Source: a virus
Lineage: Duplodnaviria; Caudoviricetes
Virus record (IMG/VR): IMGVR_UViG_3300030376_006415
Span: 1-56,637 of that record
DNA length: 56,637 nt
Direction: 5' to 3' (one strand)
A model generated the notes under the pieces. The model did no database searches. It was not told the DNA's origin and was given only the letters and a program-made list of their open reading frames with translations. Each line of letters begins with the position of its first letter. Position 1 is the stretch's first letter. Both the position numbers and the translations under genes were made by a program. Of the stretch, positions 1 to 6,500 are shown piece by piece.

Positions 1-154
1 TAGATATTAGACAATGGTATCTTAATGAAGAAACAGCTGAATGGAGGGCTGGAAGACAAGGAATTAGAATGACTCCAGCACAATGGTGCTTATTTCAATC
101 TATCTTAAATGATAATAAACTTATACTTTCAATGGATCTACCTGATGCTGAAGT
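1..154. repeat. Terminal direct overlap, copy 1 (circular assembly)
   Basis: 1-154 matches 56484-56637 except G78 vs T56561. Confidence 0.95.
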
Positions 155-251
155 TAATAATCATGTGGGATATTATAATGATGAAGTAAGTGATGCAATT
201 AATCGTGAAGCAACCGCTCAACCAACAATAGTTAAAGTATAAGGAGATAAG

Positions 252-482
252 ATGGCAGACGAAACTCAAAGTAGAAGTAGAACTACTATAAGTGATATTA
301 TATATTTCTACAAGCAGCAACTATCACGCTTTTATAAAATAGGTATTGGTAACAAGACTGAATTTAATACAGTCGTTACTGATAGACTATTAGATGCTAC
401 TCTTAGGAGACTAAAAGAGCTTCAAAGCAAAAGAGATACATTAATACATAATGCAAAGGTGAGTAAAAATGGCGCTAAATGA
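252..482 (+). CDS. Hypothetical protein
   Basis: ORF with AAGGAG RBS. Confidence 0.7.
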   Translation: MADETQSRSRTTISDIIYFYKQQLSRFYKIGIGNKTEFNTVVTDRLLDATLRRLKELQSKRDTLIHNAKVSKNGAK

Positions 483-735
483 TTATCATCATGTAGTATA
501 TATGTCTGTTAAGGATAAAAGTGGTAAGTTGGATGATTTTCCACTAAGACCATTTTTATATGAAGCAGAGGCGCAAGTTTATATTACTGGATATGTGGAT
601 GCTATAGTCAACCATACCAGTGAAGCTGATGAAGCTAAAGTAAGAGGCCAGTTTTCAATTCGAAATGTAGCTGGTGACATTGTTAACAATAATGAGGGTG
701 ATTCCTCAACAAATAAGGAGACAGAAAATGTCTAG
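469..735 (+). CDS. Hypothetical protein
   Basis: ORF overlapping both neighbours. Confidence 0.65.
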   Translation: MALNDYHHVVYMSVKDKSGKLDDFPLRPFLYEAEAQVYITGYVDAIVNHTSEADEAKVRGQFSIRNVAGDIVNNNEGDSSTNKETENV

Positions 736-1111
736 AACGATCAAAGTACTATCAGGTGGTGGATTCGTAACACAAGAAACACGATCTGAAACTATGTGTG
801 AACTGCGTGAAGAAATGGGTATATCATCCAATGCTTCAGCTGCAGTTGGTGGTGTGAATGTAAATAATTCATATCAATTACAAGAAGGGGATATCATTGC
901 ATTTGTAAACAATGATAAAACTGGTGGAACAGAACTAACTGTTGATATCAGCCTTGACAAAGAAGAGTTGTCAGTTCTATATACAGTATTGAATAGCTAT
1001 GTTAAAGAAAACATAGGATCAAATCATACTGGAGTAGAATTTGAAGATGCTCTTTGTACTAAGCTTGAAAATATACTTAGTGTATACAGGCTACAGGAAT
1101 CAATAGTATAA
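728..1111 (+). CDS. Ubiquitin-like (ThiS/MoaD-type beta-grasp) precursor: 67-aa Ubl ending in GG plus a 60-aa C-terminal extension
   Basis: AAGGAG RBS, ATG 728; ends ..YQLQEGDIIAFVNNDKTGG (L.EGD.I.F...GG signature); GG codons at 923-928. Confidence 0.8.
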   Translation: MSRTIKVLSGGGFVTQETRSETMCELREEMGISSNASAAVGGVNVNNSYQLQEGDIIAFVNNDKTGGTELTVDISLDKEELSVLYTVLNSYVKENIGSNHTGVEFEDALCTKLENILSVYRLQESIV

Positions 1112-1162
1112 TTGGTTGCCTCATCCTGAGCATGATATAAAAAGGCTCAAAATTTATATTTA

Positions 1163-1451
1163 ACCATAGCTTCTAAGATATAGCGAGCCAAATCTACTGA
1201 TAGTGTAGAATAGCATAGCTGCCTGATCTTAGACTTGAACATAACAGGTGAGATGCGAACGAACAAAGTTCATGAGGCATACTGTATAATTTGTTGCTAT
1301 GGTATTCTTACCGCACTCTGGCATAAAGCTGGGAATCAACCTTAAGTAACCCTTCTTAAGCTCAGCTCCAGAGTGCATTCCTATTCCCCTACTAGTTAAT
1401 ATCAAGTGATTTTTGCTATCTGTTGACCACGAATTGACAGAGAGTAGGGGA
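1163..1451 (+). ncRNA. Putative structured RNA cluster (three consecutive stem-closed modules)
   Basis: ACCATAGC/GCTATGGT (1163-1303), GCACTCTGG/CCAGAGTGC (1313-1376), TCCCCTACT/AGTAGGGGA (1385-1451), each with inner helices; ORF-free gap. Confidence 0.5.
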
Positions 1452-1479
1452 TTAAATTCAATAAAAACAAGGAGTTGCA

Positions 1480-1701
1480 GTGATATCTAAAATATATGAA
1501 AGCAATCAAATACTATTTAAATCAGGAACTCGTAAAGGTAAAACTAAATATCATATCGCTCTTGCTATACAAAAGAGAAAGATGAAACAGTTCCAGGATA
1601 AAGAATTTATTGTATTTCTTGAAAAGAAAGTCAAGGAATATGATAATAGATGGAAGAAGAAACGAAAGAACCAAAAGAAGAAAAAGAAAGGGAAAAAGTA
1701 A
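1480..1701 (+). CDS. Small Lys-rich basic protein
   Basis: AAGGAG RBS, GTG start, poly-K tail. Confidence 0.6.
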   Translation: MISKIYESNQILFKSGTRKGKTKYHIALAIQKRKMKQFQDKEFIVFLEKKVKEYDNRWKKKRKNQKKKKKGKK

Positions 1702-2040
1702 ATGTATTATAATACTAATGATGAAGAAGGTCAGGACTTAAGGGATTCATGGACTCAAACGGCAAATCAAAATGATTTAATACTACAATTCTTTATAGAT
1801 AATCCTGATCAATTATTTACACCAGATGAAATACATCATATGTGTGAAGTATGTGATAGAGATTGGCCAATAACTAGTATTCGTAGAGCGATATCTACTT
1901 TAACTAAAGCTGGTAACTTAACTAAAACAGATGAGTTACGGGAAGGTAAGTATGGGAAGAAAACACACGCATGGCAATATGCTGCGCAAATACGTAGAGA
2001 TATTAATGACACAGATATTCCAGGAGAAAGGGATTACTGA
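1702..2040 (+). CDS. Winged-helix DNA-binding protein
   Basis: ILQFF..FTPDEIH..ITSIRRAISTLTKAGNL followed by a beta-wing. Confidence 0.65.
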   Translation: MYYNTNDEEGQDLRDSWTQTANQNDLILQFFIDNPDQLFTPDEIHHMCEVCDRDWPITSIRRAISTLTKAGNLTKTDELREGKYGKKTHAWQYAAQIRRDINDTDIPGERDY

Positions 2041-2215
2041 TTTTGAATGGAAAGAATGTCTTGGTTCTAATCAGCTATATTTTAGAATAGGGTATTATGA
2101 TAAATTCTTATTGGATAATGGACTAGAGGATATATTTGAAGAGTTTGAAGATTTTGATCCAGACTGTGGAGCGATATTTTCATATTATTTAAGGGAGACA
2201 AATAAAAATGCATAA
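1931..2215 (+). CDS. Hypothetical protein (start probably downstream, near MTQIF)
   Basis: ORF filling the gap between neighbours. Confidence 0.5.
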   Translation: MSYGKVSMGRKHTHGNMLRKYVEILMTQIFQEKGITDFEWKECLGSNQLYFRIGYYDKFLLDNGLEDIFEEFEDFDPDCGAIFSYYLRETNKNA

Positions 2216-2402
2216 AAATGGACAGTCAGACCCACTAAAGAGTTGTGATTCATGCAGGGCAGTATGGCATAAATCAACAGTTTTAGTTGAGATGTATAAA
2301 AAAGGAGGATATAGTTATTATTATGACTTTCCTCATTATGGATTAGAAAAGAAAGAATGCCCAAATTGTGAGGAGTCAAAGTATGAGTTCAGCAACGCTT
2401 AA
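2208..2402 (+). CDS. Zinc-ribbon protein
   Basis: CDSC...CPNC. Confidence 0.65.
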   Translation: MHKNGQSDPLKSCDSCRAVWHKSTVLVEMYKKGGYSYYYDFPHYGLEKKECPNCEESKYEFSNA

Positions 2403-3705
2403 CGCAACAAACAACTTCCTTAGCGGAATGGATAATATCGATGATATTATAGAAAGAATAGCATTAGGACCACAGGAAGAAGTCTTGAATTTAATACAAA
2501 ATTTAAATTTCAGATGGAATACTGACTTTAGATGTACACCTACATTTAGATGGCAGCCTGGATTCTATAAGAAGTTAACAGAAGAGGCAGGTAAGATATC
2601 CAATGTTAATAGACAGAAGAATAAAGTATCTACATATAGGAATCAAATCAGCAATGCCAGATGGGCTATAGACCAATTCTTAACTAAGGTAGATGAGATA
2701 GATCAAAAGTTATACTTCTTGAGGAATGGCGGAATAGTATTTCAAGACAATACAGATGAAGTCAACCGTGTACTTAATGAGTATAAAGATAATATAGAGT
2801 CTACTATGTCAAGTGCAATGCAGCTATATCCACATATGAATATATCTGTATATCATGGCTTACATGTAAACGGTAGAGTACATAGAGCTCGATCTAGTAC
2901 AAATCATGCAGTTTCATTTCATGTTTATATTGAAGGAGTAAATACTAATATAAATATAGGTGGAGAGACTGTTGAAGTACCAATGGGTGATTTAGATGTA
3001 ATCATTTCTGTAGATCTAGTGAAGAACATTATGAATAGGATTAGAGGCACTCGTAGTATATCAGAAGGACATTCTGGTGGTGGTCATACTAATCCTTGGA
3101 ATGGTGCTATATTTCATCCACAAGAACCTGAAACATTATTTCCATATATATCTCAAGAACAGTGGAATAGAGACCAGCTTGAAGTTACATTTGCTGAAGG
3201 TCAAAATACAGGTTCTAGATTTAGTAATGTATGCTTTGGTAGCTTTGATACAGACATAAGACAAGCTACTTGGCAAGGTGATATATTAGCCTTGTTTACA
3301 TATCTAAATGGTTGGACAAAGAACTTCAATGTTGGAAGTACAGGTCCACTAAATAGCTATACTAAAATGTTTCATGGTATATGGCCTGAGATGCAGACAG
3401 AAGTATGGGAGTCAGCTGGCAATATGACTAATACACATAGAATGACTGATTGTAGGTATGCAAATGTATTAAATCAAGAGCAACCAGATATGGAAACATC
3501 TTATTGCGAAAGATATAATTGCGTTCTTCGCAACAGCTGTCCTTCGTATAGAGATTTATATCTACCTACAGAAGAAATAGATGATGGTGGTGAACTAGCT
3601 GATCAAGATGGTGAAACTCCATTTGGGCCAGAGTTAAATAGGTTAACAGAAGCTGAGATATTAGAAATGTATCAAGGCGTAAATACAGTAGACATAAGGA
3701 GATAA
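2383..3705 (+). CDS. Putative prokaryotic E2-like (UBC-fold) protein with N-terminal helical region and C-terminal Cys cluster
   Basis: GAGGAG then ATG 2383; LFPYIS...SNVCFG resembles the E2 HP.h...G.hCLG motif; lies directly upstream of JAB and ThiF genes. Confidence 0.55.
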   Translation: MSSATLNATNNFLSGMDNIDDIIERIALGPQEEVLNLIQNLNFRWNTDFRCTPTFRWQPGFYKKLTEEAGKISNVNRQKNKVSTYRNQISNARWAIDQFLTKVDEIDQKLYFLRNGGIVFQDNTDEVNRVLNEYKDNIESTMSSAMQLYPHMNISVYHGLHVNGRVHRARSSTNHAVSFHVYIEGVNTNINIGGETVEVPMGDLDVIISVDLVKNIMNRIRGTRSISEGHSGGGHTNPWNGAIFHPQEPETLFPYISQEQWNRDQLEVTFAEGQNTGSRFSNVCFGSFDTDIRQATWQGDILALFTYLNGWTKNFNVGSTGPLNSYTKMFHGIWPEMQTEVWESAGNMTNTHRMTDCRYANVLNQEQPDMETSYCERYNCVLRNSCPSYRDLYLPTEEIDDGGELADQDGETPFGPELNRLTEAEILEMYQGVNTVDIRR

Positions 3706-3706
3706 G

Positions 3707-4642
3707 ATGAATCAAGACTTTTATATAAGTGAGAAAGACTGGAACAAAATCCAGAATTATGCTCAAGCAGCTTATGATGATAGTAAATCTGAGATAGGTG
3801 GTATGTTAGTAGCTATTGAAGATGAGGATGGTGACTGGGAATTAAAAGATCCAGTTATCTTAAAGCAACAAATAAGTGCAGGTAATTGTGTGTTAGATAA
3901 AGATGATCTAGCGCTATATTATACTAAAGTGGGAACTAAACTCAAAAAGAAAAACTTTCGCTTTGTATGGTGGCATAGTCATCACACAATGAAGGCTTTT
4001 TGGTCGGGTACAGACTTAACTGCTATTAAAGAATATTCAGATGGTGACTTTAGCTTTGCTTTAGTTGTAAATCTTGATGAAGAATATAAGTTAAGAGTGT
4101 CTGTATGGAAGCCATTTGAGGTACATGAAGATGTAGATCTTAGCATTATAACTAAGGAAAAGAAAGTTCCTCAAAGAATACAAGATGAGGTTGCTGATAA
4201 ATGTTCTCGTATTATCCCTCAATATACTACCTATAATAAAGGGAAATATACTGCGGGAAAGTCGAGTCAGATGACTCTAATAGATACCAAGGATACCAAA
4301 GTTGGTGGTCCAAAGTATAGCCAAGAGTTATCTGGTGATTCTCCTGATTACATCTATGCTTATAATATGGTAGATGAGATGAATAAAAAATACTGTGATG
4401 GTAGGTTGACATATGAGGGATGGATAACTATGGCTAAAGATATTAACCACTTACTAAAGAGTACTTATAATAGTATTTATAGAATAGAGTTAGTAACAGA
4501 GCCTGTATTAGAATCTCAAGTTATGTTAGCAACACCTCATGAGTATATAGCAATTGACCTTACAGATGAAGCACAAGTTGAAGCTGAATGGGATGATTGG
4601 ATAGACTATAAATCTTATAACGCATCATATGGAGTAGACTAA
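3707..4642 (+). CDS. JAB/MPN+ (JAMM) metalloisopeptidase
   Basis: EIGG and WWHSHHTMKAFWSGTD (E..HxH..S..D). Confidence 0.9.
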   Translation: MNQDFYISEKDWNKIQNYAQAAYDDSKSEIGGMLVAIEDEDGDWELKDPVILKQQISAGNCVLDKDDLALYYTKVGTKLKKKNFRFVWWHSHHTMKAFWSGTDLTAIKEYSDGDFSFALVVNLDEEYKLRVSVWKPFEVHEDVDLSIITKEKKVPQRIQDEVADKCSRIIPQYTTYNKGKYTAGKSSQMTLIDTKDTKVGGPKYSQELSGDSPDYIYAYNMVDEMNKKYCDGRLTYEGWITMAKDINHLLKSTYNSIYRIELVTEPVLESQVMLATPHEYIAIDLTDEAQVEAEWDDWIDYKSYNASYGVD

Positions 4643-5301
4643 TGATAAATACAAGATCATCAGAGTTAGTGAATAACTTAGAAGATTTTACTTTTCACAT
4701 ATTGGGTTGCGGGGCTATAGGTAGCTCTGCAGCCTTACAAATAGCTAGAATGGGCGCTGATCAATTCTGTCTATATGATATGGATAAAGTAGAAGAAGTA
4801 AATATAGGTGTATCTCAATATACCTTTAACGATGTAGACAAACCTAAAGTAGAAGCATTGCATAATCATCTAATAGAATTAGGTGTTTTCAAAGTGAATA
4901 CATACAATGAGAGATTCTCAGAGTTTTATCCACAGGGAGAGAATGACATTGCTATACTTGGGTTTGATTCTATGTCGTCAAGATTACAAGCAGTAGAGGC
5001 ATTGTTTGGTATACCAGGAGTAAAGCCATTATACATAATTGATGGCCGTATGGGAGCTGAACACTATCAACAATATGTGTTTGATAAACCTACTGTAAGT
5101 AAATACAAAAAGACCTGGTATTCAGATGAGAGTGGTAGCCCAGAGCCTTGCAATGCAAAGGCAACAAGTTATTGTTCTAATCTATCAGGTAGTATGATAG
5201 CAAATACGGTAAGGAAACTCGTTACAGGACAACCATTTAACAGGTCATTTTCGTTTAATTTCCCGACAATGTTATTGGAAAAAACAGTCATGGTGTCGTA
5301 A
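4642..5301 (+). CDS. ThiF/MoeB/E1-family adenylyltransferase
   Basis: GCGAIGS, DMDKVEEVN..Q, K, GFDS, IDGR; candidate catalytic Cys in PEPCNAK. Confidence 0.92.
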   Translation: MINTRSSELVNNLEDFTFHILGCGAIGSSAALQIARMGADQFCLYDMDKVEEVNIGVSQYTFNDVDKPKVEALHNHLIELGVFKVNTYNERFSEFYPQGENDIAILGFDSMSSRLQAVEALFGIPGVKPLYIIDGRMGAEHYQQYVFDKPTVSKYKKTWYSDESGSPEPCNAKATSYCSNLSGSMIANTVRKLVTGQPFNRSFSFNFPTMLLEKTVMVS

Positions 5302-5343
5302 ATTACATACGCATTTCGAAACGCAAATCCTTATTTGTAATTA

Positions 5344-5371
5344 AGAGGGGTGGTATATCTGCCCCTTTTTT
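5344..5371 (+). terminator. Intrinsic terminator after the E1 gene
   Basis: GGGGTGG-TATAT-CTGCCCC followed by a T tract. Confidence 0.65.
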
Positions 5372-5393
5372 CACCCCCTAAATAGGAGACTTA

Positions 5394-5882
5394 ATGTCTG
5401 AAAATAAAGGAACCACAACCGTGGAAGATTACATAACGCCAGAAGATCTTGATATAGAGATTATTGAGCAAACAATGTCAGATACTATAGGTAAGTTGGC
5501 AGGAGCTTTAGCTAAAGCCCAATCAGCTATGACTATGATAGAAGGCAAAAGTACTAATCCATTCTTTAATAGTAAATATGCAAGTTTAGCTGCTGTATTA
5601 GAAGTAGCAATGCCTGCATTAAATTCTAATGAGATTGCATTAGTTCAAGGTAATAGATGGGATAACCATGATAATGGTTTTTACATCACAAGCATGTTAA
5701 TGCATTCATCAGGTGAGTGGATTAAGAGTGAAATAAGAATGCCTATAGCAAAGAAAGACGCTCATGGTATTGGAGCTGCTACTACATATGGACGTAGATA
5801 TCTATTGTCATCTATGGTTGGTGTAGCACAAGCAGATGATGATGGTAACGGTGCAATATCAAAAGCACCAAGAAAACAGTAA
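5394..5882 (+). CDS. erf: ERF-family ssDNA annealing protein
   Basis: NPFFNSKYA, GAATTYGRRY, DDDG motifs. Confidence 0.9.
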   Translation: MSENKGTTTVEDYITPEDLDIEIIEQTMSDTIGKLAGALAKAQSAMTMIEGKSTNPFFNSKYASLAAVLEVAMPALNSNEIALVQGNRWDNHDNGFYITSMLMHSSGEWIKSEIRMPIAKKDAHGIGAATTYGRRYLLSSMVGVAQADDDGNGAISKAPRKQ

Positions 5883-5896
5883 AGGAGAGATAGAAA

Positions 5897-6421
5897 ATGG
5901 CAAGAACATTAACACTTCCTAAAAGAGGAACAGGTCAATGGACTGAAGGCTGGCATACACTTGAAATAAGCAATGCTTCATATGGTAACTGGAATGATAC
6001 AAAATATATAGATGTATTATTCAAGGATTATCCTGATAACTTCAATATGCGTATATATGAAAAAATAGGTAAAGATGGTGAAGAATTTGCTATCGGTAAC
6101 TTATTTCGATTTGCAAACGCAGGTATTACTGATGCATTAGAAAGTGCAGAAGGTGAAACTGTTATCAAGATGAATGATGATGCTGAAGAACTAATAGGAA
6201 AAACTATCAATGCGTATTTTTACAAAGATGGTAAGTTCTCAAGAGTTCTAGGTCAAATTGCACCTGTTCCATTTAAGAATGTTGTAGATGAGTTTACTGA
6301 TAAAGATGTTGAATACTTTAAAGGTAAAGCTGAATCATTCTTTAGCAAATGGATAGAGCCAAAGTTAAAAGATGAGCCACATGAAGAGACTACCACAGAA
6401 ACAAGTGATATTCCCTTCTAG
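5897..6421 (+). CDS. Putative single-stranded DNA-binding protein
   Basis: Acidic tail ending DIPF; lies between ERF and primase. Confidence 0.6.
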   Translation: MARTLTLPKRGTGQWTEGWHTLEISNASYGNWNDTKYIDVLFKDYPDNFNMRIYEKIGKDGEEFAIGNLFRFANAGITDALESAEGETVIKMNDDAEELIGKTINAYFYKDGKFSRVLGQIAPVPFKNVVDEFTDKDVEYFKGKAESFFSKWIEPKLKDEPHEETTTETSDIPF

Positions 6422-6443
6422 GCAATAATATAAACCGGTAATA

Positions 6444-6480
6444 AGAGCCCACTGAAATAAAAAGAGTAAGTGGGCTTTTG
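6444..6480 (+). terminator. Possible terminator hairpin
   Basis: GAGCCCACT...AGTGGGCTTTT. Confidence 0.45.
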
Positions 6481-6500
6481 TATTTAAATAAGGAGATTAA

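Follow-up and report, generated by a model that had tools for sequence, protein, structure and literature searches.

UBA52 and RPS27A are eukaryotic fusions of ubiquitin to a ribosomal protein, and E1 enzymes need a free Gly carboxylate on the ubiquitin-like protein (Ubl) that they activate. The available parts of several published reports describe further precursors in prokaryotes and phages. In Deinococcus (DR0402), the metalloprotease DRJAMM cleaves a MoaD-MoaE fusion, and SAMP1-MoaE is another linear fusion, reportedly cleaved by a JAMM protease, HvJAMM1 (PMC4443979). BilC cuts BilA after a conserved Gly and also cuts a BilA-GFP fusion, and one extra residue on BilA blocks ATP binding by the E1. 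In Caldiarchaeum, CsRpn11 removes the 9 residues that follow the Gly-Gly (GG) of CsUb. Finally, Iyer, Burroughs, and Aravind (2006) predicted that the Ubl of lambda TAPI is released by a JAB protease at its last Gly. By these precedents, Ubl-fusion precursors trimmed by JAB proteases are already known, namely, MoaD-MoaE, BilA, CsUb, and, as a prediction, lambda TAPI.

Here, we analyzed a probable gene of this kind in an uncultured tailed phage from the sea whose 56.6-kb record (the window, i.e., the whole stretch of 56,637 nucleotides) is complete; genes for terminase, portal, head protein, and tail terminator were identified in it, and its setting is marine and seawater metagenomes. As in UBA52 and RPS27A, an N-terminal Ubl runs through GG into an unrelated small protein, called the passenger below (Table 1). 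The gene also resembles MoaD-MoaE, as far as the available text on that fusion goes, in that a prokaryotic ThiS/MoaD-type Ubl is fused at GG to a second protein and is released by a JAMM protease, an enzyme that is presumed here. The ATG at 728 lies 7 nt downstream of an AAGGAG (715 to 720), and the stop is TAA (1109 to 1111). KTGG forms residues 64 to 67 (nt 917 to 928) of the 127-aa protein, and the 60 residues that follow begin with TELTVDISLDKEEL. An earlier note on this DNA had described KTGG as internal, with a further 60 residues in frame, and both the description and its coordinates were correct. The other five frames of the tail region are all stop-rich, and the precursor is the sole Ubl copy in the complete phage genome. 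Upstream, an 88-aa ORF ends 8 nt into the Ubl gene (ATGTCTAG overlap) and is kept in the loci of all relatives; the overlap of its stop with the Ubl start suggests translational coupling. Contigs from RNA libraries (X15) cover positions 600 to 752 only and do not demonstrate transcription of the gene. Promoter and terminator sites were no more numerous in a scan than in shuffled sequences.

Table 1. Coordinates of the features discussed; positions are those of the window unless another locus is named.
Feature	Coordinates	Strand	Description
Upstream ORF	469-735		88 aa
Logan contig X2	610-1169		1 difference from the window
Logan contig X4	680-1163		4 differences from the window
Whole precursor ORF	728-1111	+	127 aa (stop not counted); Ubl and passenger share a frame
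Ubl core	728-928	+	Residues 1-67; ThiS/MoaD-like beta-grasp, KTGG at end
Logan contig X5	902-1111		10 differences from the window
Passenger	929-1108	+	Residues 68-127; small, probably helical module, no own start codon
Non-coding element	1160-1385	+	Directly 3' of the Ubl gene
64-aa ORF	2208-2402	+	Two CxxC pairs, zinc-ribbon-like by eye; overlaps start of p445
p445	2368-3705	+	Conserved 445-aa protein, directly upstream of JAB
JAB/JAMM metalloprotease	3707-4642	+	311 aa; presumed processing enzyme
ThiF-type E1-like adenylating enzyme	4642-5301	+	219 aa; Pfam ThiF, E = 1.5 × 10−15, 57.5 bits
286-aa gene of locus L002	6442-7302 (L002)	+	Replaces the non-coding element after the Ubl-passenger gene
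Stand-alone passenger gene (P0031)	573-779 (L015)		Gene alone on the contig

A fusion of this kind could also arise as an artefact of assembly or sequencing, in which a stop codon after GG had been lost. The exact 127-aa protein was present on 7 contigs from six sources, and one variant of it was present on 11 contigs. Two more DNA variants of the long form were found, in loci L002 and L014. Logan contigs from three runs, belonging to three studies besides the possible source, spanned the GG junction with no indel or stop (Table 1). The earlier note had named a stop right after GG as the sign of an assembly error, and the independent contigs that span the junction carry no such stop. As far as assemblies can show, the artefact reading is refuted, and we give it next to no probability.

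Database searches returned 27 Ubl homologues of 69 to 87 aa, plus two of 67 and 68 aa. All of them align with the window's protein over residues 1 to 67 at about 60 to 90% identity and diverge from the first residue after GG. Among 42 full-length homologues, mean pairwise identity was 0.876 over the last 64 core residues versus 0.134 over the first three tail residues, a drop at GG much too sharp to be due to chance. In the family alignments, G67 never varies and G66 hardly does. Pfam ThiS (PF02597) matched 22 of 23 family members at E ≤ 1 (best, 1.2 × 10−5), and homologue P0029 has a precomputed PF02597 match; the window's Ubl protein scored 13.3 bits, below the curated cutoff of 22.5, and we read it as a divergent ThiS/MoaD relative. 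Against the PDB, the Ubl profile returned ribosomal S4 only (E = 0.09). The exact 127-aa protein is present in the ESM Atlas (model pLDDT, 0.65), where its model has a beta-grasp fold: residues 1 to 67/71 align to viral ThiS-like, SAMP2, and RnfH Ubls (TM by row, 0.62 to 0.89). Since the beta-grasp of the model ends at residue 67 to 71, the tail lies outside it, as far as the Atlas model goes. The core ends in Gly-Gly, internal in the window's protein, and an E1-like enzyme is encoded adjacent to it. Alignments and model together support the view that the first 67 residues would be a complete Ubl and the tail a separate module. The earlier note's reading of the tail as a separate helical protein was supported indirectly by the domain boundary at GG and by the core-only alignment, with "helical" standing as probable.

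The JAMM/MPN+ motif has the form E ... HxH-x7-S-x2-D. In the JAB protein of the window and its relatives, residues E29, H90-x-H92, S100, and D103, which make up this motif, were invariant in 6 of 6 sequences. Prok-JAB was the sole Pfam match of the protein (21.4 bits, below the cutoff of 25), PADLOC JAB models matched it at E = 5 × 10−6, and its best PDB match was the Caldiarchaeum Rpn11-like structure 6fjv (E = 0.003). Every locus with sufficient flanking sequence (5/5) carries JAB, as does each of five more distant records that have the Ubl; JAB and the ThiF-like E1 were both found near the Ubl in 10 of the 10 relatives' records checked. The phage JAB that the earlier note assumed thus has an intact JAMM motif and is conserved with the Ubl and the ThiF-like E1. 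The E1 matched the E1 parts of PADLOC E1-E2 models, and its nearest PDB matches by sequence were MccB and UBA5 (E = 10−4 to 10−3). The glycine-rich loop (G22-x-G24-x-x-G27), D46, R136, C170, and C178 were invariant in 5 of 5 E1 sequences. This E1 is unusually small, consisting of a single ThiF domain, with C170 and C178 within a PEPC...YC stretch. E2 models matched none of the cluster's proteins.

The third conserved protein of the cluster, p445, is syntenic in the 5 loci with enough flank (L002, L004, L006, L007, and L010; 36 to 96% identity). It contains the invariant blocks TPTFRWQP, VCFG, and WTK.F..G.TGPLN and a C-terminal cluster of four invariant Cys. Searches of Pfam, PHROGs, PADLOC, the PDB, and the ESM Atlas gave no convincing family for p445, which could be the missing conjugating enzyme, a partner, or a target. 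The gene order (88-aa ORF, Ubl, variable stretch, phrog_9069 gene, 64-aa Cys-rich ORF, p445, JAB, E1, Erf) is kept in 5 of 5 loci with enough flank, L010 being without a match to the phrog_9069 gene or the 64-aa ORF. Apart from L010, the 64-aa ORF has a match in the relatives' loci that reach its position, and it has none in Pfam. The Ubl module belongs to the early/replication region, with Erf and primase-helicase as neighbors, and is encoded on the other strand from the structural genes.

The non-coding element downstream of the Ubl gene (Table 1) is common to loci L003, L004, L006, L007, and L009 and absent from L002. Folded as a single sequence, it reached −68.1 kcal/mol (z = −4.5), and 0 of 200 shuffles folded as well; RNAalifold on five sequences gave 54 pairs, 13 of them with compensatory changes. 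An Rfam search of window positions 1 to 3000 returned no match at E ≤ 1. From these folding models, the element is a candidate for a new structured phage RNA. The 286-aa gene that takes its place in L002 encodes a spore-photoproduct-lyase-like radical-SAM protein (Pfam SPL; E = 2.4 × 10−23).

Among the proteins listed and the loci, tails after GG ranged from 0 to 32 aa in the relatives, and a 60-aa tail was found in the window's sublineage only. The proteins listed numbered 43 (27 plus 2 search matches and 14 of the 15 members listed of a 97-member cluster, with the window's protein included). Their tails were of 0 aa (2 proteins), 2 aa (7), 3 aa (12), 8 to 9 aa (9), 12 aa (1), 16 to 19 aa (9), 32 aa (1), and 60 aa (2); some mid-length tails may have been shortened by contig ends. 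Across 23 viral loci, lengths were 0 aa (1 locus), 1 aa (2), 2 aa (3), 3 aa (5), 7 aa (1), 10 aa (1), 14 aa (1), 18 aa (5), 21 aa (3), and 60 aa (1, the L002 contig). A check proposed in the earlier note was whether homologous Ubls carry variable passengers or end at GG, and they do both. No fused forms longer than 223 aa were found, which is weak evidence. Post-GG residues look expendable in the relatives. P0027 has the 32-aa tail, and its last 13 residues come from downstream hairpin DNA translated out of frame (10/13 identical to L008); this hairpin is conserved 3' of the Ubl gene in other phages. This origin of the P0027 tail suggests that stop codons drift and that junk is translated after GG, a pattern that would be expected if all post-GG residues get removed. 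Because 41 of the 43 homologues listed have at least 1 residue after GG and would need equal trimming, the "timing switch" that had been suggested for the fusion is not specific to the passenger and found no specific support.

The composition of the tails was also examined, in the proteins of the homologue searches and in loci L028 to L039. In many relatives the first 9 post-GG residues are hydrophobic (mean, 5.1 of 9 versus 3.8 of 9 in random stop-free translations of the window genome; resampling P of about 0.002), with a weak alternating pattern (P of about 0.04). Composition may account for this, or the residues may form a short strand that has a function before cleavage.

A phmmer search with the window's tail alone against 1.84 billion representatives returned exactly two matches, both stand-alone proteins: P0030 (69 aa; E = 7.4 × 10−11; 31/50 identical in ungapped BLASTP) and P0031 (66 aa; E = 3.5 × 10−6; 24/52 identical, likewise ungapped). 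Both have Met first and align in register from the first residues of the tail. Identity between the tail and these free-standing proteins is 46 to 62%, with 19 invariant positions in the four-sequence alignment. The P0031 gene is by itself on a 1,220-nt contig (L015), where the 570 nt preceding it contain no Ubl. The search for the passenger as a stand-alone gene that the earlier note had recommended was thus successful, and the passenger exists independently elsewhere. In L015, the 570 nt upstream of the gene showed no similarity to the window's non-coding element, and an Rfam search gave a chance snoRNA match only (E = 0.5). The passenger had no match in Pfam, noise only in PHROGs (E > 0.03), and nothing in the PDB at E ≤ 10. 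Its profile had no match among genome contigs and, among viral contigs, matched the L002 contig only.

Two other ideas about the 60 residues were tried and rejected. The passenger region has no in-frame ATG or GTG and two in-frame TTG codons, neither with a usable ribosome-site spacer, and an internal start was rejected on these grounds. Inteins carry Cys or Ser as their first residue and His-Asn at their end; inspection by eye showed neither in the tail, and an intein or homing insert was likewise rejected. Comparison with short-tail relatives shows the insertion clearly. The short form P0038 has the window's core except for I57V and ends in GG-IV, the last two residues being those of the window's protein. 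In the DNA alignment, each of the 5 short-tail loci aligned has one clean in-frame gap, which opens after the GG codons and closes just ahead of the final codons of the gene; the downstream DNA of these loci is homologous again. The insert comprises about 58 codons and separates GG from the two final residues and stop (IV-stop) with which the closest short form ends. Compared to the stand-alone proteins, it is missing the start Met and about the last ten residues. Judged from these sequences, the 60-aa tail is a captured gene: in a recent ancestor of the sublineage, codons 2 to about 58 of a free gene of 66 to 69 codons would have been inserted in frame between the Ubl's GG and its two-residue IV-stop tail.

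The stand-alone homologues also bear on a reading in which the tail acts in cis before cleavage, as an aid to folding or solubility, an inhibitor of premature E1 binding, or a docking site for JAB, the free 60-mer being irrelevant. The hydrophobic excess in the first 9 tail residues favors such a role, hinting that the post-GG stretch is not wholly free. However, the homologues without an upstream Ubl, as in L015, indicate that the passenger module works on its own elsewhere, and short-tail and tail-less forms of near-identical Ubls are common. We regard a role confined to the precursor as improbable.

Alternatively, the tail might be an overlong pro-peptide, cut off like the short tails and discarded with no activity of its own. 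The hypervariable tails of the relatives, some of which are read-through of non-coding DNA, are consistent with this alternative, as are the absence of the passenger from the short-tail relatives' records (7/7) and the lack of a known family for it. However, the changes between the window and L002 point the other way. The tail differs by 6 synonymous and 2 nonsynonymous changes, both conservative (dS, 0.165; dN/dS, 0.088; binomial P = 0.0024 for 6/8 synonymous), and the core differs by 9 synonymous changes and 1 nonsynonymous change (dS, 0.217; dN/dS, 0.03), the two dS values being about equal. Six long-form variants were compared (the window, L002, L014, and contigs from three runs), and across them codon changes in the tail number 9 synonymous and 5 nonsynonymous, the latter all conservative (I-V, K-R, S-N, N-T, and Q-K), with 0 stops or frameshifts. 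By these codon comparisons the tail is under purifying selection, a conclusion that rests on few changes (8 versus L002 and 14 distinct codon changes, 5 of them nonsynonymous, over the six variants). Such selection, the intact frame in all six variants, and the invariant positions shared with free-standing proteins make a discarded pro-peptide unlikely.

The window and L002 are 95.6% identical through the tail and 33% identical in the 100 nt past the stop, suggesting that the passenger travels with the Ubl gene. The passenger profile matched the window once and L002's record once, both times at the fusion. In the seven short-tail relatives' records it matched nowhere (0/7; two of the seven are at least 90% complete), and because the passenger is absent from all seven, the Ubl system can do without it. 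In a JAB plus E1 tree of six phages, the two long-tail phages were the nearest rows (path of 0.037; next, 0.12), at a fork without resolved support. The simplest reading is that the passenger was gained once, recently.

Taken as a whole, the evidence makes it reasonably likely that the product of the gene is a pro-Ubl in which a captured small protein, freed by a JAB cut, serves as the pro-piece. The precursor would be translated as one chain, coupled to the upstream 88-aa ORF. The phage JAB would then cut the peptide bond after G67, the same cut that nearly all relatives, with their 1 to 32 post-GG residues, would need. Two products would result: the mature Ubl (7.07 kDa), whose free Gly carboxylate would be open to the ThiF-like E1, and the released passenger (6.78 kDa). 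The passenger would be made via the precursor only, one-to-one with the Ubl, and would thereafter act independently. By analogy with the precursors described above, cleavage after G67 probably frees both the mature Ubl and the passenger. The case for this cut is that the phage has a sole Ubl gene, an E1 and a JAB that are nearly unchanged, and an E1 that needs a free Gly carboxylate. Similarly, selection on the tail together with its free-living relatives suggests that the freed 60-mer is functional.

The alternative to processing is an uncleaved two-domain protein, in which the N-terminal Ubl is never activated, as in eukaryotic non-cleaved UBL-domain proteins. In its favor, the available part of the paper of Iyer et al. 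describes Ubl domains of prokaryotes and phages fused to other domains. However, the gene is the sole Ubl gene in a complete phage that has kept its E1 (99% identical to that of L002) and its JAB (95%), its core is one residue away from short forms ending in GG-IV, and E1 enzymes, according to the available text of the reports, need the free Gly carboxylate. We therefore consider a permanently uncleaved protein to have little chance of being correct.

Under the preferred reading, a pro-Ubl processed by JAB, the likeness to UBA52 and RPS27A extends to expression: the passenger is made via the fusion only, and one cut would give two products in equal amounts, as we infer here. Unlike these eukaryotic fusions, the phage gene belongs to a bacterial virus, carries a Ubl of the ThiS/MoaD kind with a neighboring JAB gene for the presumed protease, and is a recent fusion confined to one sublineage. 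In MoaD-MoaE, MoaE is the Ubl's own enzymatic partner, whereas the phage passenger has no relation to the Ubl's pathway and is missing from sister phages. The gene shares with BilA/BilC and CsUb/CsRpn11, as the available portions of those reports present them, a conserved Gly followed by non-conserved residues and an adjacent JAB. However, the tails of BilA and CsUb are of at most 9 residues in those same portions, and the phage tail has 60 residues with homologues of its own. The module also differs from BilABCD in that no protein matched an E2 (BilB) and in that its E1 has one ThiF domain (219 aa) and is not a multidomain BilD; assignment to BilABCD was rejected because of the absence of an E2 model match and the small single-domain E1.

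A phage precedent is similar in design. Like TAPI of lambda and T1, in the account available to us, the gene joins a phage ThiS/MoaD-like Ubl to a C-terminal globular domain of small size, and JAB is predicted to cut at the last Gly of the Ubl. In that account, TAPI is a tail-module protein with a linker rich in Gly and is accompanied by a JAB joined to NlpC/P60 (TAPK). In contrast, the genes described here neighbor Erf and primase-helicase in the early/replication region and include a ThiF-like E1. Identification with the lambda TAPI/TAPK pair was rejected, given that the genes lie opposite the structural strand and that the 311-aa protein has no NlpC/P60, JAB being its only Pfam match.

The module of Ubl, p445, JAB, and E1 had matches only in contigs from marine and seawater metagenomes, that is, in uncultured phages. 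A collection of cultured phages (50,697 records) gave no match, either in a nucleotide search with window positions 1 to 6500 or in tblastn with Ubl, p445, and JAB, and the Ubl profile, run against 185,579 species with one genome per species, likewise matched nothing. A literature search, spoiled in one part by matches to a common word, found no description of the module. After activation, the Ubl may act in conjugation or in sulfur transfer. On a bolder reading, the post-GG site would be a cargo slot and the captured 60-mer a host-takeover or counter-defense factor gated by Ubl, E1, JAB, and p445, which would form an undescribed phage protein-modification system. If JAB removes whatever follows GG, any in-frame ORF placed there would be expressed at the level of the Ubl and released only once JAB is active. 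We offer this extension tentatively, as a possibility that is rather doubtful at present.

The surrounding module of Ubl, p445, JAB, and E1 is probably a larger unknown than the fusion itself. The 60-residue tail provides a ready size reporter for JAB cleavage and, with it, an easy biochemical entry into the module of Ubl, 445-aa protein, JAB, and small E1. In the fusion, a bacterial virus would have a natural precursor of the ubiquitin-fusion type whose passenger has no part in the Ubl's own pathway, an independent mirror of the eukaryotic ubiquitin-ribosomal protein design.
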